Positions 1 through 11,888 of a DNA stretch of 11,888 bases are shown piece by piece. The DNA comes from a virus (Duplodnaviria; Heunggongvirae; Uroviricota; Caudoviricetes): IMG/VR virus record IMGVR_UViG_2896601577_000007; one strand, 5' to 3'. Each line of letters opens with the position of its first letter. The first letter of the stretch is position 1. The notes beneath the pieces are model-generated. The model did not search any database and was not told where the DNA came from. It saw only the letters and a program-made list of their open reading frames with translations. Both the position numbers and the translations under genes were made by a program.

Positions 1-519
1 TCATCGGTTCGTCTGAGAATGACGTGCAACTGCGCACGCGACACCCGGAGACAACGGCTGACTAAGCTTACTCCCCATCCCGGGCAATAAGGGCGCGTGC
101 GCTATCCACTTTTTTGCCCGTCCATATTCAACGGCTTCTTTGAGGAGTTCATTTTCCATCGTTTTCTTGCCGAGCAGGCGCTGGAGTTCTTTAATCTGCT
201 TCATGGCGGCAGCAAGTTCAGAGGCAGGAACAACCTGTTCTCCGGCGGCCACAGCAGTAAGACTTCCTTCCTGGTATTGCTTACGCCAGAGAAATAACTG
301 GCTGCTACACCATGTTGCCGGGCAACGAGGGAGACCGTCATCCCCGGTTCAAAGCTCTGCTGAACAATTGCGATCTTTTCCTGTGTGGTACGCCGTCTGC
401 GTTTCTCCGGCCCTAAGACATCAATCATCTGTACTCCAATGACTAGTCTAAAAACTAGTATTAAGACTATCACTTATTTAAGTGATACTGGTTGTCTGGA
501 GATTCAGGGGGCCAGTCTA
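1..519 (-). mobile_element. IS2 (IS3 family), partial copy: left end with terminal inverted repeat and insC/start of insD; the remainder lies beyond the window's left edge
   Basis: Reverse complement of 421..519 matches the IS2 left terminus as I recall it (TAGACTGGCCCCCTGAATCTCCAGACAACC...), ending at 519. Minus-strand ORFs carry InsC sequence ([44 protein letters not shown] and [57 protein letters not shown]) and an InsD segment ([27 protein letters not shown]). A6G slippery motif is present on the minus strand near 108..116. Confidence 0.9.
68..428 (-). pseudogene. insC: IS2 orfA (insC) remnant, reading frame broken
   Basis: The N-terminal 44 aa of InsC sit in the frame of ORF 201..473 and the remaining InsC sequence in the frame of ORF 1..252; the two frames switch near 297..300. 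ATG at 428. Confidence 0.7.
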
Positions 520-736
520 CATCCCACCATTTCAGGGCAATCAGCGCCTCAGCACGGGAAAGGGATATTCTCTGTATATCAGCATCCTCCCCACCAGCCA
601 CCCGGTATACCTCTGATAAATCACGAACATTTTTCATGTCTGCTTTCCCGGACGTTTCCATCAGTGCGTTAATATCATCCCCGTATAGCGTGATTGCGCG
701 ACGATACCAGCCAGAGAGATAACCATAGCCCGGCAT
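520..736 (-). CDS. 3' portion of the FtsH-like peptidase-domain gene, cut off by the IS2 end
   Basis: 72 codons of open frame run directly into the IS2 terminus at 519/520; the last 16 aa of the track ORF 470..736 are encoded by IS2 sequence. This frame is open upstream to 763 and overlaps the 661..1020 ORF. Confidence 0.45.
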
Positions 737-1020
737 ACCTGGTCTATCAGACGTAACCTGGTGTCATCATTCGAGAGGGTGTAAGACTTAACCTCAGCCA
801 CATTCCGTGGATAGTTGGCGTGCCATACCGCGACAGCTCCACATTCATCAACATCGCCGCTAAGGTAGGTTTTTGCCACTCGGTTATTACCCGATAACGC
901 AATTTCTACCTCCTGTATGCCGAAAAACCATGCGGCTATCGCATGACCTGCTTCATGTATTGCAAGATGTCTGGGCCAGCGATAGCTGCCGAACTCAATA
1001 ATGATGGGTTGCGTACTCAT
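661..1020 (-). CDS. Zn-metallopeptidase-like protein, FtsH/M41-type domain (HEAGH motif), possibly frameshifted
   Basis: LAIHEAGHAIAAWFFG followed by SLAGIVAQSRYTG resembles the FtsH protease-domain pattern (HEaGHA ... GGRaAE ... TG..DI). Internal ATG at 1020 is preceded by GAGGGA; the track ORF extends to 1098 without a Shine-Dalgarno sequence. Confidence 0.6.
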   Translation of the reverse strand: MSTQPIIIEFGSYRWPRHLAIHEAGHAIAAWFFGIQEVEIALSGNNRVAKTYLSGDVDECGAVAVWHANYPRNVAEVKSYTLSNDDTRLRLIDQVCRAMVISLAGIVAQSRYTGMILTH

Positions 1021-1030
1021 ATCTTCCCTC

Positions 1031-1465
1031 TCAGAATGGCGTTTCATTGTCGAATGGTGGGCGTTGGTCGTATTCATCACGGGATGGCTGCTGCGCACGT
1101 CTCAGCGCGTCCGTTGCCTGTCCCCGCTGTCCTGCCTTCCCGCCGGGGCGTACCGTTCTGGCGCTGATCACACTGTCGGCTACTACCTGATACCCCTGCT
1201 GTGTACCGCCGTCCTGCCCTGTCCACTGGTTGAGTTGCATATTGCCTGCCACGCTCACAAGGTCGCCTTTCTGGTGCTTTGCCAGCGCATCGGCCTGCTT
1301 CCCAAAAGCAATAACGCCCAGCCAGAAGGTTGACTCTCCCGCCTCTGCCGCATTACAGGGGAGAGACACCGCCAGCCGCGCCATAGCCATGTTGTTACCG
1401 TTCGTTGTGGTGCGGGTCTGGGGATCTGCCACCAGCCGCCCGTATGCTGAAATTTGTGCTGTCAT
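1031..1465 (-). CDS. ssb: Single-stranded DNA-binding protein-like (OB fold, acidic PF tail)
   Basis: 144 aa; OB-fold-like pattern (RLVADPQTR...NG...ARLAVSL...FWLGVIAFGKQADALAKHQKGDLVSVAGNMQLNQWTGQDGG..YQVVAD) and C-terminal ...PPFDNETPF similar to the SSB DDDIPF tail. GAGGGG Shine-Dalgarno sequence upstream of ATG at 1465. Confidence 0.65.
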   Translation of the reverse strand: MTAQISAYGRLVADPQTRTTTNGNNMAMARLAVSLPCNAAEAGESTFWLGVIAFGKQADALAKHQKGDLVSVAGNMQLNQWTGQDGGTQQGYQVVADSVISARTVRPGGKAGQRGQATDALRRAQQPSRDEYDQRPPFDNETPF

Positions 1466-1553
1466 TTTCCCCTCACTGGATTATTAGTTTTGCTAATGAC
1501 GATTTCTTAATGTGGGACACCTGCCGATTTTTTTTCATAGTAAGCAAAAATAG

Positions 1554-1813
1554 TGTTGTCTCTGTTGTCTTTGTTGTCTCACGGCTCTACAGGCCGCGCC
1601 ACGTCTGGGTTTTGCTGAGACAACATTTGCAATTTCGTGTTGTCTCACCCGGCATAAATGTTGTCTCACTGCCTGCCAGACTAAAAACACACTTTCGCCC
1701 TGTTGTCTCAAAATGGCTAAATGTTGTCTCGGTGTTGTCTCAGAAATTAAAATAAAATCCTTATAAATCAATCTCAATTACAAATTGAGACAACAAAGAC
1801 AACCGAGACAACA
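1554..1813. repeat. Iteron array: at least 8 direct and 3 inverted copies of TGTTGTCTC around an AT-rich core; putative origin of replication
   Basis: Direct copies at 1554, 1563 (TGTTGTCTT), 1572, 1639, 1659, 1701, 1722, 1733; inverted GAGACAACA at 1617, 1787, 1805; AT-rich stretch 1742..1790. It lies immediately 3' of the primase gene. Confidence 0.8.
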
Positions 1814-1839
1814 CTAAAACTACGCATGTGAAGAAATAA

Positions 1840-2289
1840 TTATTCTTCTGGCTGGCTGCTTTCCTCTGCCATGAAATTGAGTACATAGACGCGAATCTGT
1901 CGCCCATCCTCCCTTACTCGCCCCTGATAGCCTCGCCCGCTCGTTGGTGGTGTAAGCATTCCTGCATTCTTTAGAACTTCGGCAAACTGTTTGGTATTGA
2001 AGCCCTTTGCAATCTCCTGCTCAAACGCTGCCGGGAAGGTGTAGAAAATTATCGGGTCGCCGTCGTGGTTCCCCTTCTTCCTGTACCCGGCTAAATCACG
2101 GATGGGTAAATCGCGCGGGTCATAACCCAGCGGCGCGAATCGACTCAGCCCATAGGCATTCAAAAACGCCTCCGTCTGCTCAATAATCTGCTGGTGCTCT
2201 TTGTTCCCCGTGCCGAACTCACGCAACCACGCATTGTAGCTGTGCTGTATCGCATCACGGCACGTTTGATCATCCCAGCCAGTAACCAC
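1840..2289 (-). CDS. Primase/helicase C-terminal fragment (third frame segment)
   Basis: GTG-initiated track ORF with no convincing Shine-Dalgarno sequence; its frame is open upstream to about 2394, overlapping the end of the 2334..3890 ORF. Confidence 0.55.
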   Translation of the reverse strand: MVTGWDDQTCRDAIQHSYNAWLREFGTGNKEHQQIIEQTEAFLNAYGLSRFAPLGYDPRDLPIRDLAGYRKKGNHDGDPIIFYTFPAAFEQEIAKGFNTKQFAEVLKNAGMLTPPTSGRGYQGRVREDGRQIRVYVLNFMAEESSQPEE

Positions 2290-2333
2290 GCCACCCAGCA
2301 GTAAAGCAGCCTCCAGAATGGCGAACCTTGCCC

Positions 2334-3890
2334 CTACACGGTGAACCTGTTCCCATAGTCGGCAGGAATAAGACTGCGCCAGCGGGCTTCACAGTCACGA
2401 ACGGTATCAATGGCCTGCTGCTGGTGGCCTGCAAGCCATCTGATCCACTCCCGCCCGGCAGCGCCGTGATTGCTCTGCCACGCGGATTTTAATGCGTCTG
2501 CATGGTCTTTCCCTGTCTGGTGCTCATGAAAGCGCACCGCCTTACTTAACGGGATATTCAGCAGGCGCACCAGTTGCCCCGCTTTTGTCTTGCGTCCTGC
2601 GGAGGCAATGAACGTTTCTAAATCCATTTCCCCGGTGCTGATTGCCACGGTACGCCAGCGTTTTAGATCCCGATTTCCGCCTTCTTTCGCGCCCTGCAAT
2701 TTCCCTACGCCGTTAAACAGGGCATAGGCAGACTGAGAAACGCTTATCGGGTCTGCGCCCTGTCCGACTTCATCCAGCGGCATCAGTCCGTCATTGTGGG
2801 CGGCGGCCTCGTTTATCATCCCCAGCGCCGTCCCGTACCACGTCAGGCGCAAGGCATCAGGGTTCCCGTATAGACTGCTAGCCACGTTCTGCGTGGTTGT
2901 TTTCCCGGCGCTCGATTGCTCATAAAAATGAATCCCGAATCCGTCACGCTCTGCCACCCCGATTAATGGCGCTGCCAGTGCTGCGGCAATGCCTGTCATC
3001 ATCGCGTAGTTGCCGTATGCCAGCCGCGCGACACTGTTGCGCCAGCTTTCCGGCGTTCCTGCTACGGTATACCCGGCAGCGGCTGAACTGCGCCCGCTGA
3101 ACAAAACAGGCCGCTCAGGTGTGCCGATGATTTCCCCGTCCGGCATGATGTATGCCCCGCACTGCCAGCCTGTAGCATGAGCAACGCGCCACAATTCACG
3201 CGAGCCGCTCCGCTGTAGCCAGTCGGCAAGGATCGCCCGTAAACTGCTTTTGGTCGTGACGTTAACCCCACCAGCTTTCAGGGTGCGCCAGCCTTCACGC
3301 TCGCCAATATCAGCCAGCGGGATAGCCGCTGTTGTCGGTATGCCTGCACCGAATGCCAGCCATGAGATAATAAGATACTGATCTTTGTCGTCGCGTCCCG
3401 TGCCGATAACCTCCAACGGGGAACATAACCAGCTTTCAGCGTTGACGATCTCCCCGCTTTCCTTGTCCACCTTCGGCGTTACCCAGAAAACGCCATCTTT
3501 GCGGCTCTCAATGTGGGGTTTTAGTGGATCTTTCTCTGGATGGTCAGTTTTACCGCCCTCAATGGCTTGCAATCGCGGTTTCACGGCTTCCCCTTGAATC
3601 TGGTACATCGAATCGTTAAACGCAGCCGTAGCGACTTCCAGCCCGTTTTGCTGGCGGTAATCGTCCCAGTCGGCTTTGTAGTCTGTCGGCGGCAGCGCCA
3701 CCCAGCCAGCCACGGATAAGGCGGCTTTCTCTGCGGCATCTTTGCCCGTGTTCGCCTGGTCGTCCTGCTGGTGGTCGTTATCTGCGGCAATGATAATCTG
3801 CGTGGCTGGATATATCCGGCGCATCACTTCGGCAACGGGTAGCAGGTTGCCCGCGTCAATTGCTGCCACTGCCAGCGCGTCCGGGCGCAT
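2334..3890 (-). CDS. Primase/helicase central fragment: distal TOPRIM (DxD) plus P-loop region (DUF927-like)
   Basis: IIIAADNDHQ (TOPRIM DxD) 37 aa after the annotated Met, and a Walker-A-like SSAGKTTT. Its ATG overlaps the stop of the upstream fragment (TGATG). The frame upstream of the Met encodes LATALSVHL, which continues the TOPRIM motif. Confidence 0.85.
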   Translation of the reverse strand: MRPDALAVAAIDAGNLLPVAEVMRRIYPATQIIIAADNDHQQDDQANTGKDAAEKAALSVAGWVALPPTDYKADWDDYRQQNGLEVATAAFNDSMYQIQGEAVKPRLQAIEGGKTDHPEKDPLKPHIESRKDGVFWVTPKVDKESGEIVNAESWLCSPLEVIGTGRDDKDQYLIISWLAFGAGIPTTAAIPLADIGEREGWRTLKAGGVNVTTKSSLRAILADWLQRSGSRELWRVAHATGWQCGAYIMPDGEIIGTPERPVLFSGRSSAAAGYTVAGTPESWRNSVARLAYGNYAMMTGIAAALAAPLIGVAERDGFGIHFYEQSSAGKTTTQNVASSLYGNPDALRLTWYGTALGMINEAAAHNDGLMPLDEVGQGADPISVSQSAYALFNGVGKLQGAKEGGNRDLKRWRTVAISTGEMDLETFIASAGRKTKAGQLVRLLNIPLSKAVRFHEHQTGKDHADALKSAWQSNHGAAGREWIRWLAGHQQQAIDTVRDCEARWRSLIPADYGNRFTV

Positions 3891-4597
3891 CAGGTGAACT
3901 GAAAGGGCCGTCGCCAGCCCTCGGCAATTAAAACGCTCTGCGGCGATTCTGGCGCGTTTACGGCGTGATATGCCCCGCGCTTTGCTGAACCTGTCAGGAG
4001 TCGCTTCTCTCCCTGCGGTGTAATGGTTTGCGCTGCTGCCACTGCGCCGGATTCGTCCACCAGCTCCAGCAATAACGAACCATCCGGCATAACCGGATAG
4101 TTAAACCCGGTCAGCCCTTTTGATTGCAGGTAATCAGATTCGCCCTGTGTGGCACTCTGGCGCATTCCGGCATACAGATGGGCAAACGTAGCCCTTCGCT
4201 GCTCTGCGTCCTCTGCTGCCTGTTTCTGGCGCTCCTGCTCACGCTGCTGGCGGTCAGCTTCCAGTTGCTCTCTTCTATGGCTCGCTGCCGCCGGGTCGGT
4301 TTGCGCTGCCCGGTAATCAATACCCAGCACGTCAGCGGCAAGCTGTGCCGCCTCCGTGGTGTCGCAGTTGTTTACCCGCTTGATTAAATCCAGCCCGTCA
4401 CCAGCGCCACACTGGTTGCAGATAAAGCTACCGCGCCCGTTGTCGTCGAATCTGAAACGGTCTTTTCCACCACATGCAGGGCATGGAGAATGGCGGCGCG
4501 ATGAATCAGGCACGTCGATAGACAATTCAGCCAGCACATAAGGCCAGCGCCCTGCTGCGGCGCTGGTCACTTCGCGGATAAGGTCGATATTACGCAT
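3890..4597 (-). CDS. Primase N-terminal fragment: Zn-ribbon plus start of TOPRIM (catalytic Glu)
   Basis: CPACGGKDRFRFDDNGRGSFICNQCGAGDGLDLI is a P4 alpha-type primase zinc-binding motif; the fragment ends ...SVLIAEG then WRRPFQFT*. ATG at 4597 is preceded by AGGAGG; the track ORF extends to 4630. Confidence 0.85.
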   Translation of the reverse strand: MRNIDLIREVTSAAAGRWPYVLAELSIDVPDSSRRHSPCPACGGKDRFRFDDNGRGSFICNQCGAGDGLDLIKRVNNCDTTEAAQLAADVLGIDYRAAQTDPAAASHRREQLEADRQQREQERQKQAAEDAEQRRATFAHLYAGMRQSATQGESDYLQSKGLTGFNYPVMPDGSLLLELVDESGAVAAAQTITPQGEKRLLTGSAKRGAYHAVNAPESPQSVLIAEGWRRPFQFT

Positions 4598-4666
4598 GGT
4601 TGCCTCCTGCCACGGTCGCGCCCATATCATTAATCATGCTTTGCCATATCTCGCGCCCGATGTCAG

Positions 4667-4930
4667 TCAATCCGTCCTTAGTGACGCAACGATCAAGAAG
4701 CTCGATCCCACGATTTCCCACTGCGGGTAGCGCACTTTCATGGCTGCCAGTGCGTAGCTATCAATCAGGCTGCGAACGCCTTTTACTCCATTGACGATTT
4801 CCACACGGACGGCGAGGCCGTCCGCATCAATCATGAAATAGTCCCCGCCGCTGGTGGAAGTAATGTGGTTATACAGTGCTGCCGCATACTTATTCGCCAG
4901 CGCATTCAGTCGGAAATTTTTAGTAATCAT
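4667..4930 (-). CDS. Hypothetical protein (87 aa), last gene before the primase
   Basis: ORF with GAGGGG Shine-Dalgarno sequence 4 nt upstream of ATG 4930; 8-nt gap after the upstream gene's stop. Confidence 0.6.
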   Translation of the reverse strand: MITKNFRLNALANKYAAALYNHITSTSGGDYFMIDADGLAVRVEIVNGVKGVRSLIDSYALAAMKVRYPQWEIVGSSFLIVASLRTD

Positions 4931-4938
4931 GTCGCCCC

Positions 4939-5541
4939 TCAGTGCGCCAGCGCCATTTCAGGCCAGCCGTTTTCATTCAGTTCAGCTATAAAGCTGTTGT
5001 GAAGTTCAGCAAGCGTTTCACGACCAAATGGAGTCAGTGCTCCTTGTTCCACATCCATCATGGCTCTGTAGAAAATGATGGCGCGTTCTGTGCCAGACTC
5101 GATGCCAAAACGTTCTATCATCGCGCCCTCAATGTTGTTTGCCATAGCGAGGCGCTCTGCTACTGGATACAGCGGCATGGCGACGATGCCGTTGGAATAA
5201 ACAGCCACTTCGGAAGGATTGCCAGTATCATCAATGATGCTGACAGTGCCGTTTTCCTCTCTCATTTCCAGCATGAATACTGTTGCGATCAGCCAGCGCC
5301 ACATAATCACGTGATGCTGTGATGTGTAATCGAAATATCCCTGGTTGCCGCCACTGGCAATAGCGAGATGTATAAACATGCCTTCATCTGGTTTATCGTC
5401 ATAATCCCCGGCATCCAGACGATTTACGGCATCAATATATGAGACGGTCTCAACGCGTTCTGTCATGCCATCGTTGCTGCGGTACATGATGTTTACGCCG
5501 CCAGGCGTTGCTTCTGCATGGAACGTTAAGAAATTATTCAT
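4939..5541 (-). CDS. Hypothetical protein (200 aa)
   Basis: Internal ATG at 5541 preceded by GAGG, overlapping the upstream gene's stop by 8 nt; the track ORF extends to 5646 with no Shine-Dalgarno sequence. Confidence 0.65.
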   Translation of the reverse strand: MNNFLTFHAEATPGGVNIMYRSNDGMTERVETVSYIDAVNRLDAGDYDDKPDEGMFIHLAIASGGNQGYFDYTSQHHVIMWRWLIATVFMLEMREENGTVSIIDDTGNPSEVAVYSNGIVAMPLYPVAERLAMANNIEGAMIERFGIESGTERAIIFYRAMMDVEQGALTPFGRETLAELHNSFIAELNENGWPEMALAH

Positions 5542-5755
5542 GTTTCGCCTCGCCTGAATGATTCTGTAACTCATATTTGCCCAACAATTCGTCAGCTTCC
5601 TGAATAGCTTCTGGTACGCCATTGAGCAGTGACATAACCGCGCCAATCATTAACTTGTCTCTGTTGCTGGGGCTGGCCCCTTCAAGCCAGAACCCTAAAA
5701 CAGTCTGAACCTGTTCGATGCGACATTGCGCTTCAATGAGCTGGATGTTGGTCAT
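5534..5755 (-). CDS. Hypothetical small protein (73 aa)
   Basis: ATGA start/stop overlap with the upstream gene; GGAG 8 nt upstream. Confidence 0.6.
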   Translation of the reverse strand: MTNIQLIEAQCRIEQVQTVLGFWLEGASPSNRDKLMIGAVMSLLNGVPEAIQEADELLGKYELQNHSGEAKHE

Positions 5756-6015
5756 TTCGCACTCTCCACATCGATTAAACTGATATCTATCAGGGAGGTA
5801 ACTTTTTGTAGCCAGCTATTGATTACTGTCGCCTGTTCCCCTCCCACCGAGGGAACAATCTCATTCATCACATGAACCAGACCTGTGCGCGCTCTGGTAA
5901 GCCGTTCAGTCGCGCAATCTGCGGGAGTGAATGTGTCTGGATATGGCTCTTCGCGCCCCAGCAATGATTCAATTTCCAGCTCACACGGATGACGATAAAT
6001 TAAGTTGATATTCAT
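5752..6015 (-). CDS. Hypothetical small protein (87 aa)
   Basis: ATGA overlap with the upstream gene; GGGGGTG Shine-Dalgarno sequence upstream of ATG 6015. Confidence 0.6.
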   Translation of the reverse strand: MNINLIYRHPCELEIESLLGREEPYPDTFTPADCATERLTRARTGLVHVMNEIVPSVGGEQATVINSWLQKVTSLIDISLIDVESAK

Positions 6016-6206
6016 TTTTCACCCCCAAGAATTACCAGCTCTGCACGGGCATCGTTAACCAAAGATGAGCACGCTTTAATCGCATCCACGACATCAGCAG
6101 CGTCCATTTCTTCAGCCGAAAGACTGACAGCAACCAGGACAGCCGCTGTTTGCTCGATTAATTGAAGTGCGGACGTAAGGCGAGGGGTATTAATTGAGTT
6201 ATTCAT
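6012..6206 (-). CDS. Hypothetical small protein (64 aa)
   Basis: ATG at 6206 preceded by a G-rich Shine-Dalgarno-like run, 8-nt overlap with the upstream gene's stop; the track ORF extends to 6263. Confidence 0.55.
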   Translation of the reverse strand: MNNSINTPRLTSALQLIEQTAAVLVAVSLSAEEMDAADVVDAIKACSSLVNDARAELVILGGEK

Positions 6207-6417
6207 TGGTTGCCCCCCGTTTTCCTGACATTTCGCCACCTTCCAGCAGGAAATGAACGTCACGAACGGCGAGATCCAATATCGCGAGTAACGCCTTCAG
6301 TTTTTCGTCTCGTGAGGGAGAGTTGCTCACCAGAATGTCATTAATCACTTCTGTCAGTGTGATGATCTGGCTTGTGCGTTCGAGGGGATCCATATGCACA
6401 TCGTAGGTTTTAATCAT
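6199..6417 (-). CDS. Hypothetical small protein (72 aa)
   Basis: ATG at 6417 preceded by GGAGGTG; overlaps the stop of the first operon gene by 8 nt; the track ORF extends to 6507. Confidence 0.6.
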   Translation of the reverse strand: MIKTYDVHMDPLERTSQIITLTEVINDILVSNSPSRDEKLKALLAILDLAVRDVHFLLEGGEMSGKRGATNE

Positions 6418-6604
6418 GTGCCACCTCCATGCGGATACGACCAGCAAAAAAGCAGACGTGATCGCGCACCAGAGAACGGCGAGCATCGCGTTCAGACTCG
6501 GCAGCAATATGATGAATTTTGGCGGTAATTGTCGGGCAATCGCGGCGAACTGCGGCGATAATCCAGATAAATTGCGGTTTTTGGGTAGGGGTAGTAGCCA
6601 GCAT
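6410..6604 (-). CDS. Hypothetical small protein (64 aa), first gene of the small-gene operon
   Basis: ATG at 6604 with AAGGAGG (rc of 6613..6619) 8 nt upstream (MLATTPTQKPQFIWIIAAVRRD...). This is the 3' end of the track ORF 6410..7165, which I do not accept as a single CDS. Confidence 0.6.
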   Translation of the reverse strand: MLATTPTQKPQFIWIIAAVRRDCPTITAKIHHIAAESERDARRSLVRDHVCFFAGRIRMEVAHD

Positions 6605-6631
6605 AGCGGCAGCCTCCTTTGTGTTTAAGGA

Positions 6632-6670
6632 GTCACCGCCTGAGTTTCCACGCTCTGAAATGGCGGTGAC
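6632..6670 (-). promoter_or_regulatory. 9-bp-stem hairpin in the 5' leader, just upstream of the Shine-Dalgarno sequence of the first operon gene
   Basis: GTCACCGCC (6632..6640) and GGCGGTGAC (6662..6670) are perfect inverted repeats around a 21-nt loop; a 5-bp stem with UUCG loop on the minus-strand RNA lies at 6711..6724. Confidence 0.35.
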
Positions 6671-6793
6671 GTTAGCAGGGGTGGAAATACCGGACACAAA
6701 GGAAACCGGCCTACGCGAACGTAGCCCCACTAACGCCACCATTGATACAGTACGGACTAGGCCGCTGATTTGATGTGCGTAGTGATCGGACAC

Positions 6794-6816
6794 AAAAAAA
6801 GACGCTTTCGGCGTCT
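6794..6816 (-). terminator. Intrinsic-terminator-like hairpin followed by a U-run (minus strand)
   Basis: Minus-strand RNA reads AGACGC-CGAAA-GCGUCU followed by UUUUUU (plus-strand A-run 6794..6799). Confidence 0.5.
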
Positions 6817-7103
6817 GTGTCGCCCTGAGTGTGTTCGGGTTTCCACGCCCGGTTGCTGATTTTGCAGCAACGCTTGGACTATAACAGCTTTTCTCTGCTA
6901 GGTGGTCATACCAGATAAAACCGTAACCCTTTAAGAGTTTTTCCTGTGCACGGCTCACCATCTTTTTGTTGAGGGTAAGCGCCTCGCGTACTGGTAACGG
7001 AACTCCGGGCGCTGCGGTATCAATATCAGGTTTTATAAGGTTGTAAGGGTTAACATTTGTTAACAGGCCAGCCAGATTAAAGGCTTCTTTCTGGGCGGCA
7101 GGT

Positions 7104-7286
7104 TCATTCAGTATCACGGCGCACCTCCACGAACTCATTAACGAATCTCTCCAAAGGCTGAACACATGGCGACTGATAGCCCTCGCGGTAAAAGGTCACT
7201 CGGTTATGCTCGACGCGCTCAACGGTCACTACAGCCCCGTGCGAATCCTTGTAACGGCTTCCCGGCATCGGATTGTGGTTACGCAT
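7104..7286 (-). CDS. Hypothetical small protein (60 aa)
   Basis: GGAGG 5 nt upstream of ATG 7286; overlaps the stop of the upstream 50-aa ORF by 8 nt. Confidence 0.55.
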   Translation of the reverse strand: MRNHNPMPGSRYKDSHGAVVTVERVEHNRVTFYREGYQSPCVQPLERFVNEFVEVRRDTE

Positions 7287-7431
7287 GGTTTACCTCCAGA
7301 CGTTTAGCGAGCCAGCGTTGCGACAGGCGGGTGAGTTCTCCTTTGCGCTGCTCATATTCCATGCCCATATCAATTAACGTGATATTGGTGCTTTCGAGAT
7401 AGGCGAGGTGTTCAAGCTGTGCTGCGTTCAT
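7279..7431 (-). CDS. Hypothetical small protein (50 aa), below the ORF-track length cutoff
   Basis: Hand translation of the minus strand: MNAAQLEHLAYLESTNITLIDMGMEYEQRKGELTRLSQRWLAKRLEVNHA; its stop overlaps the 7104..7286 start region. Confidence 0.4.
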   Translation of the reverse strand: MNAAQLEHLAYLESTNITLIDMGMEYEQRKGELTRLSQRWLAKRLEVNHA

Positions 7432-7470
7432 GCTGTCCCGTGGTTCGCCAGTAATGCCATTTGCCTGCGC

Positions 7471-8088
7471 TCACTGCTTCGCCGTCATGCCACCCAGCAC
7501 GATACGGGCGATCATGTTGCTCTCGTTGCTGTAGTGGCGCTGCTGCGTCGTTTTGCCCATCTCGGCACGGGCCATATTCAGCGCATCGCACATTGGCTTA
7601 AAGTTGTTTGCGGCACTGAGACGGGCTTTTAGCTGGCGACGATAGCGGGCGGCGATTTCAGGCACGCTACGCTGTAATTCTTCCTCGCACTGGATGAAAT
7701 AACGGCGGATAGCGCGGCCCTGCTCGTTGCGTTCAACCATTGCCACTTCTTTAGCCATATCCAGCGATAGCAGGTAATCATGCTCTATTTGCTGGCGAGT
7801 TTTTGCGCTCGCCCGTTTTGGCGTGCTCAAATTTTCAACACGGATAAAATCGGTTCCGGCAATAAAACCGTACTGGTCAATTCGGCCTTTAATCCAGTTA
7901 GTAAAGTCGCGGCCCACCCCCAGCGCTTTATGCAACGCCTTAGCGCTCACAATATTGGCTTCACGCCCGCCAATGCGTCCGGCAATAACGGGAACAATAG
8001 CGGCAAAGTCGTTGCCGTTAATTACTCCCGTGTTAACGTTGGGTTGCGGGGCGGCCCCCGAACTGAATCGGCTTTTTTCGATAGTCAT
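7471..8088 (-). CDS. Phage antirepressor-like protein (AntA-type N-terminal domain)
   Basis: VSAKALHKALGVGRDFTNWIKGRIDQYGFIAGTDFI resembles the AntA/antirepressor motif. ATG 8088 is preceded by GGAG; the track ORF extends to 8148 and would overlap the upstream gene. Confidence 0.7.
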   Translation of the reverse strand: MTIEKSRFSSGAAPQPNVNTGVINGNDFAAIVPVIAGRIGGREANIVSAKALHKALGVGRDFTNWIKGRIDQYGFIAGTDFIRVENLSTPKRASAKTRQQIEHDYLLSLDMAKEVAMVERNEQGRAIRRYFIQCEEELQRSVPEIAARYRRQLKARLSAANNFKPMCDALNMARAEMGKTTQQRHYSNESNMIARIVLGGMTAKQ

Positions 8089-8101
8089 ATTTTCGGCTCC
8101 G

Positions 8102-8533
8102 TTATGCGGCGGTGAGATTGTCCGGGTATAGATTGAGAATGTCGGCAATTTCAGGCTGAGAAAGTCCCTGATAGCCGCCAGCGTCGGCGTTATGGTTCAC
8201 AAGCCGAATAACTTTTAGAACGTCACCGCGCCCGGTAAAGCGATAGCGTAAATGTGGCCCTATCCCGTCGGGGTTCTTTTCGTCTATACGCTCAAGCTGA
8301 ATATCAAGCCTGCGCTCTAACTCGCTGGCGTAGTTCCTTCCAGACGAAAGGCGGCAATAACGCAGAATGTCATTTTCTGTCCATCCCTCTATACCAGTAC
8401 GCAGCATATAGACTCTGGCACGATGCTTTTTCGGTGTGCGCTTTGGTGCTTGAAGGGATTTTGTAAGGGGCGTAACATCAGATACGCGAATATCTGAATT
8501 AGCCGCCTGTAATGGGCGGTTTTTCTTTTCCAT
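8102..8533 (-). CDS. Hypothetical protein (143 aa), translationally coupled to alpA
   Basis: Its start shares one nucleotide with the alpA stop (TGATG). Confidence 0.6.
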   Translation of the reverse strand: MEKKNRPLQAANSDIRVSDVTPLTKSLQAPKRTPKKHRARVYMLRTGIEGWTENDILRYCRLSSGRNYASELERRLDIQLERIDEKNPDGIGPHLRYRFTGRGDVLKVIRLVNHNADAGGYQGLSQPEIADILNLYPDNLTAA

Positions 8534-8736
8534 CAGGCCACCTTCCCGCGGCGTTCTGCCAGCCAGTTGTGAATCTCAACCGCATCAAACGCAGTTATTT
8601 TTTCTCCCAGCTTTACCGGACGTGGTAGTGAACCGTTTCTTACTTTACGGTCGATGGTGGATACACTAACGCCCAGCAATTCAGCCAGGCGGAAGCGTCT
8701 GATATAGCCTTTTGTAGGGATAGTGTCGATGTTCAT
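8533..8736 (-). CDS. alpA: AlpA/Vis-family helix-turn-helix transcriptional regulator
   Basis: 67 aa; RFRLAELLGVSVSTIDRKVRNGSLPRPVKLGEKITAFDAVEIHNWL is a typical AlpA (P4 Vis / CP4-57 AlpA) signature. Confidence 0.9.
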   Translation of the reverse strand: MNIDTIPTKGYIRRFRLAELLGVSVSTIDRKVRNGSLPRPVKLGEKITAFDAVEIHNWLAERRGKVA

Positions 8737-8822
8737 GATTCCCGTAACCTCTTAGCGATAGTTGTTGCTTCGTTACGGGGATTTAATGGCGTGCACGCTC
8801 AAAAAGGAATGATCGTATTTTT

Positions 8823-8860
8823 TACTATCGTGATAGTAAAATTTACTATCACCTTTTTTT
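8823..8860 (+). promoter_or_regulatory. Operator-like TACTATC half-sites (two direct, one inverted) forming a hairpin followed by T7 (plus-oriented terminator-like)
   Basis: TACTATC at 8823 and 8844, inverted GATAGTA at 8832; stem GTGATAGT/ACTATCAC (8830..8837 / 8845..8852) followed by TTTTTTT 8854..8860. It lies about 90 nt upstream of the alpA start and overlaps the stop of the 126-aa ORF. Confidence 0.4.
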
Positions 8861-9229
8861 CCCTGCCGTGGTGCGTTCTTCCGGTGTTCTGTCTGCGTCG
8901 GCTATGAGTTTCTTCAGGTAATCTATGGATGGCTCATCATAGCCGCCCCCCAAAAGCGCCCAGTGGTTTATTGTGGCGTTCGCCCATGCTTCGTTGGTTT
9001 CCTTCCCGTTCTTCCCTTTACACTCTTCTGGGTAGTGCCGCTTCACATAAATCAACGCCAAGAGGCAAATTTCGCGCTTTTGCCTGTGGCGCTCTCTGTT
9101 TCCGTGCTCAACGTTTTTAACATCCTCATAAAGAGCTTGTAAGTTTATGCGAGTTTCGGGGCTGTATATGGGCTGGTTTTTGTCCATGCATTCGCCGATA
9201 TATTCAACCCACGGCCTTGTTATGTACAA
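8849..9229 (-). CDS. Hypothetical protein (126 aa, TTG start in track); possibly the frameshifted 3' part of the IS1-disrupted cargo gene
   Basis: ORF in AT-richer DNA with no recognised motif; weak start signals; the frame is open upstream to 9346, overlapping the end of the cargo gene. Confidence 0.45.
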   Translation of the reverse strand: MYITRPWVEYIGECMDKNQPIYSPETRINLQALYEDVKNVEHGNRERHRQKREICLLALIYVKRHYPEECKGKNGKETNEAWANATINHWALLGGGYDEPSIDYLKKLIADADRTPEERTTAGKKR

Positions 9230-9234
9230 ATCCT

Positions 9235-9401
9235 CTACGGATATTTCGTGGAAGGCATGTTTTGTATAATCGAGAAAAAATAATAATTCGCACTTACGTC
9301 TAGTTCTCTTTTTCTGTGTGCGGGGCTGAATATGCGTGCGGGAGTGTCAATAGAATCAAGCCCTGCGATGTCGAGTATATAGGAGGCGTTAACATGCCAT
9401 A
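9235..9401 (-). pseudogene. 3' part of the integrase-proximal cargo gene interrupted by IS1
   Basis: Same reading frame as 10179..10473 once IS1 and one target-site duplication copy (777 nt) are removed; the reconstructed ORF is 153 aa. Confidence 0.6.
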
Positions 9402-9410
9402 GCCCAAGCA
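9402..9410. repeat. IS1 target-site duplication, left copy (GCCCAAGCA)
   Basis: Identical 9-mer directly flanks both IS1 ends. Confidence 0.85.
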
Positions 9411-9465
9411 GGTAATGCTGCCAACTTACTGATTTAGTGTATGATGGTGATTTTAAGGTGCTTGC

Positions 9466-9741
9466 GTGGCTTCCATTTCCATCAGATGTCCTTCCTGCTC
9501 CGCTACTGAAGGCGTGGTGCGTAACGGCAAAAGCACTGCCGGACATCAGCGCTATCTCTGCTCTCATTGCCGTAAAACATGGCAACTACAGTTCACTTAC
9601 ACCGCCTCTCAGCCCGGTACGCACCAGAAAATCATTGATATGGCCATGAATGGCGTCGGATGTCGCGCCAGTGCACGCATTATGGGCGTTGGCCTCAACA
9701 CGGTTTTACGTCACTTAAAAAACTCAGGCCGCAGTCGGTAA
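9466..9741 (+). CDS. insA: IS1 InsA (91 aa, GTG start)
   Basis: [66 protein letters not shown]... closely matches IS1 InsA. Confidence 0.9.
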
Positions 9742-10163
9742 CCTCGCGCATACAACCGGGCAGTGATGTGATTGTCTGCGCTGAAATGGACGAACAGTGG
9801 GGCTACGTCGGTGCTAAATCACGTCAGCGCTGGCTGTTTTACGCGTATGACAGGATACGGAGGAGGGTTGTGGCGCACGTCTTCGGTGAACGCACTCTGG
9901 CCACACTGGAGCGTCTTCTGAGCCTGCTGTCGGCCTTTGAGGTCGTGGTATGGATGACGGATGGCTGGCCGCTGTATGAATCACGCCTGAAGGGAAAGCT
10001 GCACGTTATCAGCAAGCGTTACACTCAGCGCATTGAGCGACATAATCTGAATCTGAGACAACATCTGGCAAGGCTGGGACGGAAGTCACTGTCGTTCTCA
10101 AAATCGGTGGAGCTGCATGACAAGGTCATCGGGCATTATCTGAACATAAAACACTATCAGTAA
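9660..10163 (+). CDS. insB: IS1 InsB (167 aa), transposase catalytic part
   Basis: ...[58 protein letters not shown]...[13 protein letters not shown] matches IS1 InsB with several substitutions. Confidence 0.9.
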
Positions 10164-10178
10164 GTTGGAGTCATTACC

Positions 10179-10187
10179 GCCCAAGCA
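10179..10187. repeat. IS1 target-site duplication, right copy (GCCCAAGCA)
   Basis: Identical to 9402..9410. Confidence 0.85.
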
Positions 10188-10473
10188 CATGGCAATCTAT
10201 ATGATTTACAACGCCTGCCTTAAAGCTTTTTTCGTCCTCTACTTCAGTGATTATGTCGGCAAGTAACAAGCAGTCGTCTTTGACGTCTGGGAATAAAGAG
10301 CAATTGCGATAAAGACTCGCGATGCTATGTAATGTGCCGTCGTAGCCGCAAAGGTACGCGCTCAAATATATAGATTCTGCCGCCGCCATAATCAAAAGAT
10401 CATCAATATCTATTTCTAATAATTCGGCTGCTCTGTTAAGCCTGAAAAAAGGGGCGGGTGGTAATTTTTTCAT
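10179..10473 (-). pseudogene. 5' part of the integrase-proximal cargo gene interrupted by IS1
   Basis: ATG 10473 preceded by AAGGTGA; 98 codons, then the frame runs into the IS1 right end. AT-richer than the rest of the element by eye. No recognised motif (MKKLPPAPFFRLNRAAELLEIDIDDLLIMAAAES...). Confidence 0.65.
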
Positions 10474-10505
10474 TGCGTCACCTTTTACGCTGCGCCTTAT
10501 TTTGT

Positions 10506-10561
10506 GATTGAGCCAGGCGGTAAGGCTTCCCGCTTTTCGCCCCGTCGAGCTAGGCTCAATC
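10506..10561. repeat. 9-bp inverted repeat GATTGAGCC / GGCTCAATC separated by 38 nt, between the int stop and the cargo gene start
   Basis: Perfect 9-bp arms at 10506..10514 and 10553..10561; no flanking U-run on either strand. Confidence 0.4.
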
Positions 10562-10568
10562 TATTCAG

Positions 10569-11828
10569 TTAGTTCGCCCTTCTGAGAGGCGTTACGTTGT
10601 AGTCTTTTCCGCTTTCCAGTGCCACTAGCAGATCAGCCCACTGTGCCAGTGCTGCTTTACGCTCATCAAAATACTGATGGCGGTTATAAATCCCCTCTAC
10701 GCCCTTAATGCGATGATTGAGGCATCGTTCCGCCACAACAGGATCAACACCCAACGCTGCTAAATGAGTACGTGCGGTGCGTCGAAAGTCGTGAATCGTG
10801 AAATTAGGCACATCCGGCATTTCGGCGCGAACCTTAGCCAGTGCTACGGGTAAAGTGCTTTCCTGAATATGTGGGATCATTCTGTTTTGCATCTTCCTGG
10901 CCGGAAGCACCCATGCGCTATTACATGAAAAGGTGTGTAGCTCTCTCAACCATTCAACGGCTGGGGAAGGTAGAGGTATATCAATAGGGTCTCCGTTTTT
11001 GCTGCGTTCTTCCGGCAAATGCCATACCGCACCATCTAAATCAAACTCTTCCCATCGTGCGGCGCATAATTCCATTTTGCGGACGCATAACGCTAACAGT
11101 AATTTGAACGTGATTTCGTTCTGGCGACTGAATCCCTTAGCCGTGCGCATGGCTTTGAATAGCTGGATTAACTCATCGCGGGTTAACCAGCGGTCACGGG
11201 CAGCTTCTTTCCCTCCGGCGTCTGCCACCTCAAAGGCTGAACAGGGGTTAATCTCTAGCGCGTGCCGTTTGATTCCGTAGTCGAATATGCGGCGCGTCCA
11301 TCTCAGCACGTCCGTTGCTATGGTCGGCGCTCCACGGTCAACAATACCTTTCAGCATGTCATCGATATGGCGCGGTTTCACGTCCTCTACCTTCATGCTG
11401 CCAATGCAGGGGTTTATATCTTTGTCGATACGGCGGCGGAGTATATCGGGGTGCTTCCAGCGCGGGAGGATCTGACGCTCAAAGTATTCAGCGGCAAGCT
11501 CTGAAACGCGCATAGCGTTCTTCTCTGCTTCCATCTTCGCCAGTGCTTCGGTTTTGTGCTTCTGCTTCTCTCCTGCAACGTCATAGCCCAGCGCAACGCG
11601 AGCCGATAGCTCTTTGGCTGTCTCTCTGGCCTTTGATAGTGATAGCTCGCTATACGAACCAATTAGCATGGCGCGGGACTTCCCTGCGAGTTTATAGCGG
11701 AATCTCCATGTGGGGGTTTTGTCGGCTTCACGGTAACGTAGGTATAAACCGTTACCGTCTGCCCGCCCCTCGAATCGCTCTCCGCTCTTAATCCATGCGC
11801 GGATCTGCATGTCTGTTAGTTTTGGCAT
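10569..11828 (-). CDS. int: P4-type tyrosine integrase (site-specific recombinase)
   Basis: 419 aa from MPKLTDMQIRAWIKSG...; N-terminal P4-like arm-binding region (GNGLYLRYR...WRFRYK) and C-terminal catalytic region (HDFRRTARTH...LNH...IYNRHQY). The track ORF extends 20 codons further to the window edge. Confidence 0.95.
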   Translation of the reverse strand: MPKLTDMQIRAWIKSGERFEGRADGNGLYLRYREADKTPTWRFRYKLAGKSRAMLIGSYSELSLSKARETAKELSARVALGYDVAGEKQKHKTEALAKMEAEKNAMRVSELAAEYFERQILPRWKHPDILRRRIDKDINPCIGSMKVEDVKPRHIDDMLKGIVDRGAPTIATDVLRWTRRIFDYGIKRHALEINPCSAFEVADAGGKEAARDRWLTRDELIQLFKAMRTAKGFSRQNEITFKLLLALCVRKMELCAARWEEFDLDGAVWHLPEERSKNGDPIDIPLPSPAVEWLRELHTFSCNSAWVLPARKMQNRMIPHIQESTLPVALAKVRAEMPDVPNFTIHDFRRTARTHLAALGVDPVVAERCLNHRIKGVEGIYNRHQYFDERKAALAQWADLLVALESGKDYNVTPLRRAN

Positions 11829-11858
11829 TTTGCGAATATCCAAACTTTGAATAGGGGG

Positions 11859-11882
11859 TGTACCCAAAGCAATGTACCCAAA
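11859..11882. repeat. Direct repeat TGTACCCAAA x2 (14-bp spacing) upstream of the int start
   Basis: Copies at 11859..11868 and 11873..11882, in the int 5' region at the window edge. Confidence 0.35.
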
Positions 11883-11888
11883 CCTCAT

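Follow-up and report, generated by a model that had tools for sequence, protein, structure and literature searches.

Single-base deletions at short C-runs in a Shigella boydii integrative island: probable consensus errors beside genuine lesions

Do genes that appear broken at short runs of cytosines testify to the decay of the element that carries them, or to bases lost when the sequence was assembled? The question is raised by IMG/VR virus record IMGVR_UViG_2896601577_000007, a stretch of 11,888 nucleotides (nt) assigned to the Caudoviricetes (hereafter the window, i.e. the whole stretch that was analysed), which carries a primase gene and an integrase gene and begins inside a copy of the insertion sequence IS2. 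The original prediction had attributed four gene disruptions in the window, one in IS2, one in a presumed peptidase gene and two in the primase gene, to one missing C each, and had left the choice between homopolymer undercalling and the real frameshifts of Shigella-like genomes to a later comparison. The window proved to be 100% identical to CP026867.1 (Shigella boydii chromosome, 4,607,924 bp, GCA_002949895.1). From comparison with independently assembled sequences we conclude that the four -1 sites that could be tested directly are very probably homopolymer errors in the consensus of CP026867.1 and not decay.

Shortened C-runs and the genes they split

A BLAST alignment of the window against E. 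coli relatives bore out all reported sites, in that each of these plus-strand C-runs is one C shorter in the window than in the relatives; only the position of one of them had to be corrected, as the run in the presumed peptidase gene lies at 679-682 and not at 677-680. One further site of the same kind lies outside the range of the original prediction, which likewise did not list a 4-nt loss within IS2 (298-301) and the IS2 insertion itself (520/521). The shortened runs are the following:

79-81, plus strand: CCC against CCCC, in IS2 (about position 443 of the element, coding-strand context CCCGGGG); probable consensus error
679-682, plus strand: CCCC against CCCCC in QXHH01000160.1 and nine other assemblies, in a gene with an HExxH motif; very probable consensus error
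2352-2354, plus strand: CCC against CCCC, in the primase gene; very probable consensus error
3918-3920, plus strand: CCC against CCCC, in the primase gene; very probable consensus error
4707-4709, plus strand: CCC against CCCC, in a gene for a product of 113 amino acids (aa); fifth site, very probable consensus error

The genes in which these runs lie are:

1-520, minus strand: partial IS2, comprising orfA and the beginning of orfB, with 99% identity to IS2 copies
521-1020, minus strand: hypothetical gene with a HEAGH motif, of which residues 1-167 of a 213-aa protein are left
1840-4597, minus strand: primase-helicase gene (Zn-ribbon, Toprim, DUF927), true product 919 aa
4590-4930, minus strand: gene without known function (phrog_37628), true product 113 aa, called here as 87 aa

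The true length of the run is four or five at all five sites, and the change is in each case a loss of one base inside the run. A sixth candidate at 4935-4938 (CCCC against CCCCC in the E. coli relatives) was rejected: QXHH01000160.1 and all S. boydii copies have CCCC there, and the site, which is intergenic, differs genuinely between lineages. No common sequence context or methylation motif was evident around the five error sites, the flanks of which differ; a T stands on the 5' side (plus strand) at four of the five.

Adding one C per site restores proteins that are widely attested. The two corrections in the primase gene, which appears in CP026867 as pieces of 235, 518 and 149 aa, yield exactly the intact 919-aa primase (P0076) found on 29 S. 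boydii contigs (NCBI and Logan), and the correction at 4707-4709 yields exactly a 113-aa protein (P0063) found on 205 contigs. At 679-682 the added C joins two calls of 119 and 63 aa into a 183-aa HEAGH frame that runs to the IS2 junction, and a product of the same length is called in other assemblies. The truncated products are another matter: exact-protein look-ups, in which the occurrence of the fragments was counted among some 15 billion proteins, found those of 235, 518, 149 and 87 aa on one contig only, CP026867.1. The suspicion of undercalling is upheld by this contrast. At the DNA level the HEAGH gene is 99.7% identical to its counterpart in E. coli DY612 (WP_095784789), and its earlier designation as a peptidase is backed by the motif and not by any Pfam or PHROG match, of which none was found for the protein. 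Judged from the restored frames, the primase gene, the 113-aa gene and, save for the genuine break made by IS2, the HEAGH gene are almost certainly uninterrupted in the real organism.

Further evidence comes from an independent S. boydii draft contig, QXHH01000160.1 (9,000 bp), which was reached via its intact ssb product and served as a same-clone control. Its ends lie 54 nt within IS2 and 52 nt within IS1, as expected, because short-read assemblies break at repeats. Compared with positions 467-9462 of the window (8,996 nt) it shows no substitution and four gaps, each of which coincides exactly with one of the missing Cs, at 679-682, 2352-2354, 3918-3920 and 4707-4709. We regard it as the same clone since a single-nucleotide polymorphism (SNP) at position 1048, in ssb, is common only to this contig and CP026867. 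If indels account for about 10% of real differences, as we assume from general bacterial mutation spectra, four indels unaccompanied by substitutions over 9 kb would have a probability of about 1e-4. The comparison with closely related genomes that had been proposed as a check thus decides for undercalling. It also speaks to whether the other boundaries of open reading frames (ORFs) can be trusted: positions 10081-11888 are 100% identical to draft contig LPTS01000016.1, and in all 10.8 of the 11.9 kb are otherwise identical to independent drafts, so that the remaining boundaries can be trusted.

Deletions in other assemblies and the competing explanations

An intact neighbouring gene served to find ten copies of the island in S. 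boydii, which were aligned with MAFFT. The one-base deletions in G/C runs are distributed over the ten assemblies as follows (positions are those of the window):

CP026867: five (79-81, 679-682, 2352-2354, 3918-3920, 4707-4709)
CP026797: six (8951, 8059, 6218, 6026, 1423, 511)
PTES01: six (9161, 8951, 6218, 5672, 3976, 2209)
CP026866: one (6218)
AMKE01, AMKC01, AMJS01, CP049281, UAUR01 (NCTC) and CP001063: none

Each of the five deletions of CP026867 is private to that assembly (one of ten). Three other assemblies show the same class of change at other runs, and the remaining six are free of it; a 6-base run at 6213-6218 is shortened in three assemblies and another, at 8946-8951, in two. The SNPs follow a consistent haplotype pattern, with for instance eight common to CP026867, AMKC01 and CP026866. 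The quality problem therefore extends beyond CP026867 to CP026797, PTES01 and CP026866.

Several side observations concern the gene calls in these copies. The deletions in CP026797, PTES01 and CP026866 split integrase, ssb, antA and primase calls. In AMJS01 a 2-nt insertion (GG) at the equivalent of window position ~3700 breaks the primase up into pieces of 339 and 589 aa, and in CP026866 an in-frame 3-nt deletion at ~3915, adjoining the 3918 C-run, gives a primase of 918 aa. No primase gene is called in CP001063 (S. boydii CDC 3083-94), despite the fact that no private small indel was seen there.

The restriction of the deletions to G/C runs was assessed on the corrected window, which contains 41 C-, 25 G-, 38 A- and 75 T-runs of length at least 4. 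All five events in CP026867 fall on G/C rather than A/T runs of at least 4 (p=0.006), and so do all 18 events of the four affected assemblies (p=1.6e-8). The apparent restriction to the plus strand, a feature of the original prediction that might have hinted at a strand-specific process, was rejected as a clue: C-runs outnumber G-runs on that strand by 41 to 25, and the bias is not significant, either for the 5/5 events of CP026867 (p=0.08) or for the pooled events (13 plus-strand C-runs and 5 plus-strand G-runs; p=0.47). The density of deletions in the window, 0.42 per kb (95% confidence interval 0.14-0.98), would by rough extrapolation correspond to some 600-4,500 such errors in CP026867.1.

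Taken together, these data make it very probable that consensus building undercalled some short G/C homopolymers, of true length four or five, by one base, and that each undercall split a gene in CP026867.1. The errors would appear as missing plus-strand Cs because the genes at 1-5,000, all of which are on the minus strand, carry more G-runs than C-runs. We favour undercalling because the deletions are private and, where the same-clone assembly could be compared, the sole differences from it, because their correction restores widely attested proteins, and because three other assemblies show the same class of error at other runs. The platform was probably one of early PacBio-type long reads without short-read polishing; the confinement to G/C runs is what we presume an early PacBio consensus to look like. 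The literature gave no platform for CP026867.1: no paper was found that names CP026867, CP026810, CP026872, CP026797, CP026866, PTES01, QXHH01 or the GCA numbers, a search on Shigella boydii, PacBio, homopolymers and pseudogenes gave no match, and the only neighbouring accessions to turn up, CP026836 and CP026811, were uninformative on this point.

The isolate might instead carry five independent -1 deletions in G/C runs, in which case the primase gene, the 113-aa gene and the IS2 transposase gene would be true pseudogenes. Such decay has a certain plausibility, given that Shigella genomes do accumulate real pseudogenes, that the island itself holds lesions of this kind (IS2, IS1, an A7-to-A6 frameshift and a TGA codon in antA) and that slippage in homopolymers is the commonest natural mechanism of indel formation. 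The distribution of the deletions argues strongly against it: these are private and, as far as it extends, absent from QXHH01000160.1, which has no substitutions over 9 kb, and four or five indels without any substitution are very improbable for real divergence; moreover, three other assemblies would each have to have acquired G/C-run deletions of their own, and never one in an A/T run. The inheritance by related isolates that marks a Shigella pseudogene is found for IS1, IS2, the A6 frameshift and the antA TGA codon and for none of the five C-run deletions, and the real frameshift at 9275-9280 behaves quite differently from these, being shared by three assemblies and fitting the SNP haplotype. 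At about 0.4 per kb genome-wide, the number of frameshifts extrapolated above would not be viable. We therefore consider decay at the C-runs highly improbable, so that the expectation of real Shigella-like decay fails at these sites and holds for the four genuine lesions elsewhere in the island. A related possibility, that the cultures really held dense -1 deletions in G/C runs, for instance through a polymerase or repair defect at G/C tracts, and that the replication module was thus inactivated by a targeted mutational process, seems extremely improbable to us. Functional recoding or phase variation, in which the G-runs would be slippage sites or contingency tracts of which the assembly caught one state of the population, has in its favour that IS2 uses a programmed -1 frameshift nearby (A AAA AAG at 109-115) and that some bacteria owe their phase variation to homopolymer tracts. 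Yet the tracts are only 4-5 nt long against at least 7 for typical contingency tracts, and the variation in both directions that marks a long contingency run is found at none of the five sites: the sole change is -1, in particular assemblies only, and the others agree on one length. At no site is there a slippery heptamer, 79-81 lies on the coding strand 28 nt to the 3' side of the genuine one, and two frameshifts in the primase gene would call for two recoding events; in addition, the in-frame versions of the two gene products occur on 29 and 205 independent contigs and the alternative on none. The probability that is left to recoding or phase variation is negligible.

For IS2 the matter is less settled, and three features have to be distinguished here:

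79-81, plus strand: the shortened C-run listed above
109-115, minus strand: A AAA AAG, a slippery heptamer at which IS2 naturally undergoes its programmed -1 frameshift, distinct from 79-81
298-301, plus strand: a single CTGG where intact IS2 has CTGGCTGG; the 4-nt loss truncates InsC to 75 aa

One C added at 79-81 restores the canonical C-terminus of InsC (...PLLPGDGE*), the tail of which is shifted by the deletion together with the frame of the InsCD fusion. The programmed -1 frameshift is an established mechanism of the IS3 family, and intact IS2 is annotated accordingly ('programmed frameshift'); the change at 79-81 is a deletion in the DNA relative to every orthologous copy. As the nine orthologous copies outside CP026867 lack it, and by analogy with the other four sites, it is probably a consensus error as well. 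The alternative, confined to IS2, is that both the CCC at 79-81 and the loss of CTGG are real alleles, spread by gene conversion, or were brought in by reads from other IS2 copies during polishing. The 4-nt-deleted orfA allele is indeed common in other IS2 copies, its 75-aa product (P0163) occurring on 119 contigs, S. flexneri 2457T included, from Logan and ENA sources too, and the -1 at position 443 was seen in four other IS2 copies. The 83-aa product of the -1 allele, on the other hand, was found in NCBI assemblies only (CP026810, CP026867, CP026872 and an NCTC contig) and in no Logan or ENA record. At the other loci, in CP026810 and in two copies of CP026872, it occurs with different SNPs and on backgrounds with and without the 4-nt deletion, which points to recurrence rather than descent; CP026872 has in addition a C5-to-C4 loss in the terminal repeat, and in the NCTC contig a different base is deleted and two A-runs carry insertions. 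We consider this alternative unlikely, albeit a possibility to be reckoned with. As to the CTGG loss, it too is private to CP026867, the nine orthologous copies in other strains having two units, and it could stem from gene conversion between IS copies or from cross-copy contamination of the consensus.

Several observations weigh against undercalling as the explanation of the C-run sites. The error is deduced from assemblies rather than seen in raw reads, and the platform of CP026867.1 is presumed. QXHH01 may come from a very close relative instead of the same isolate, and its contig, broken at the repeat, does not cover 79-81. The C-runs of five and six bases in the window were called correctly and those of four were not, which is somewhat unusual for undercalling that depends on run length. 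The errors are also unevenly spread, with five in the first 4.7 kb and none in the other 7 kb, and the ~5.9 kb of flank that was compared holds at most one error candidate. In the source flank, the call for ligB (L008, 17819-19345) comes to 508 aa, compared with 560 aa in E. coli; no indel was found in the part overlapping L005, in a comparison without the 5' end of ligB, and the shorter call may reflect another error or a difference in start codon.

The result mainly concerns data quality. Gene models should disregard the breaks at 679-682, 2352-2354, 3918-3920 and 4707-4709, and probably also that at 79-81. By the rough extrapolation given above CP026867.1 probably holds around a thousand spurious frameshifts, and the inclusion of the unpolished CP026867.1, CP026797, CP026866 and PTES01 in studies on pseudogenes or 'reductive evolution' would lead to an overcount of decay.

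Genuine lesions and the state of the island

Four lesions are common to independent assemblies: the IS2 and IS1 insertions, an A7-to-A6 frameshift and a nonsense codon in antA. The last three are located as follows:

7471-7473, minus strand: nonsense codon in antA (TGG to TGA), product 205 aa instead of 277 aa
9275-9280, plus strand: frameshift, A6 against A7 in most S. boydii copies, splitting a 232-aa gene into ORFs 8849-9229 and 9235-9585
9411-10178, plus strand: complete IS1 (768 bp) with inverted repeats and a 9-bp target duplication, GCCCAAGCA, at 9402-9410 and 10179-10187

At 520/521 the IS2 insertion, whose terminal inverted repeat (TAGACTGGCCCCCTGAATCTC, minus strand) ends at 520, has deprived the 213-aa HEAGH gene of its final 46 codons. 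It is real since it is present at the identical place in all ten S. boydii assemblies and QXHH01000160.1 ends inside it. The IS1 is present in the other assemblies, and draft contigs end inside it; it sits in a gene next to the integrase-proximal 99-aa ORF. We consider the A6 frameshift to be real because, unlike the C-run deletions, it is shared by CP026867, AMKC01 and QXHH01000160.1, consistent with the SNP haplotype. In antA the window reads MTAKQ* against MTAKQW in E. coli; the gene is a real pseudogene, as QXHH01000160.1 is identical to the window here and seven of the ten S. boydii loci have a call for the 205-aa product (CP026797 has one of 154 aa, and no antA is called in CP049281 and CP001063).

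The rest of the island includes, in addition to a DUF4222 gene, an Ash-family gene and alpA:

1031-1465, minus strand: ssb, intact, carrying the lineage-marker SNP at 1048
1555-1812: iteron field that separates ssb from the primase gene; GTTGTCTC occurs ten times there, in both orientations
10569-11888, minus strand: tyrosine integrase gene, intact (439 aa), exact protein on 173 contigs

The iteron field is probably the replication origin of the island, a putative function; GTTGTCTC occurs 12 times in the whole window against 0.28 expected, a count that no shuffle reached. In AMKE01 84 nt of the field are missing, and CP001063 has an extra insertion of 1,253 bp at ~6425, in the region of the Ash-family gene, where an HTH_Tnp_1 gene is called. 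An island of the same kind lies between yicC and dinD in the E. coli relatives, and the chromosomal site is conserved.

The choice that had been posed between a functional satellite and a dead remnant is thus answered on either side in part. The four genuine lesions have truly inactivated several accessory genes, the integrase, AlpA, the Ash-family gene, the primase, ssb and the iterons have stayed intact, and the element is neither pristine nor dead.

Comparison with known systems

In its gene content (int, alpA, antA, DUF4222, an Ash-family gene, a Zn-ribbon/Toprim/DUF927 primase, ssb and iterons) the element resembles PICI-like or P4-like satellites, and it appears to be a satellite-like integrative island. 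It differs from such satellites in that no capsid, packaging-redirection, Psu/Delta/Sid or helper-interference genes were identified in the island, a putative satellite by gene content, and in that this copy bears four real lesions. With the programmed -1 frameshift of the IS3 family the change at 79-81 has in common that it lies in the same IS2 and that the frame change is also -1; unlike the programmed site at 109-115 it consists in the loss of a base from the DNA, by which the fusion frame is destroyed and not created.

The IS2 and IS1 insertions, the A7-to-A6 frameshift and the antA TGA codon match the reductive evolution of Shigella in being shared between independent assemblies, whereas the five C-run deletions occur in no other assembly, and the same-clone draft is without those in the part it covers. 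These deletions agree with the gene-fragmenting homopolymer errors of unpolished long-read assemblies, which Kastor (PMC12007338) and polishing with short reads address, being single-base changes confined to homopolymers of four to five that leave adjacent fragments on the same strand; here they are also private to one assembly and gone in short-read assemblies. Errors of long-read assemblies are mainly homopolymer indels, which pseudogenise genes, and in one profiled nanopore assembly deletion errors were found to be commonest after runs of 4-5, with A/T runs most often affected (PMC12007338). In contrast to those nanopore data, in which A/T runs dominate, only G/C runs are affected here (18 of 18), which suggests a chemistry or consensus caller different from the nanopore one described there.

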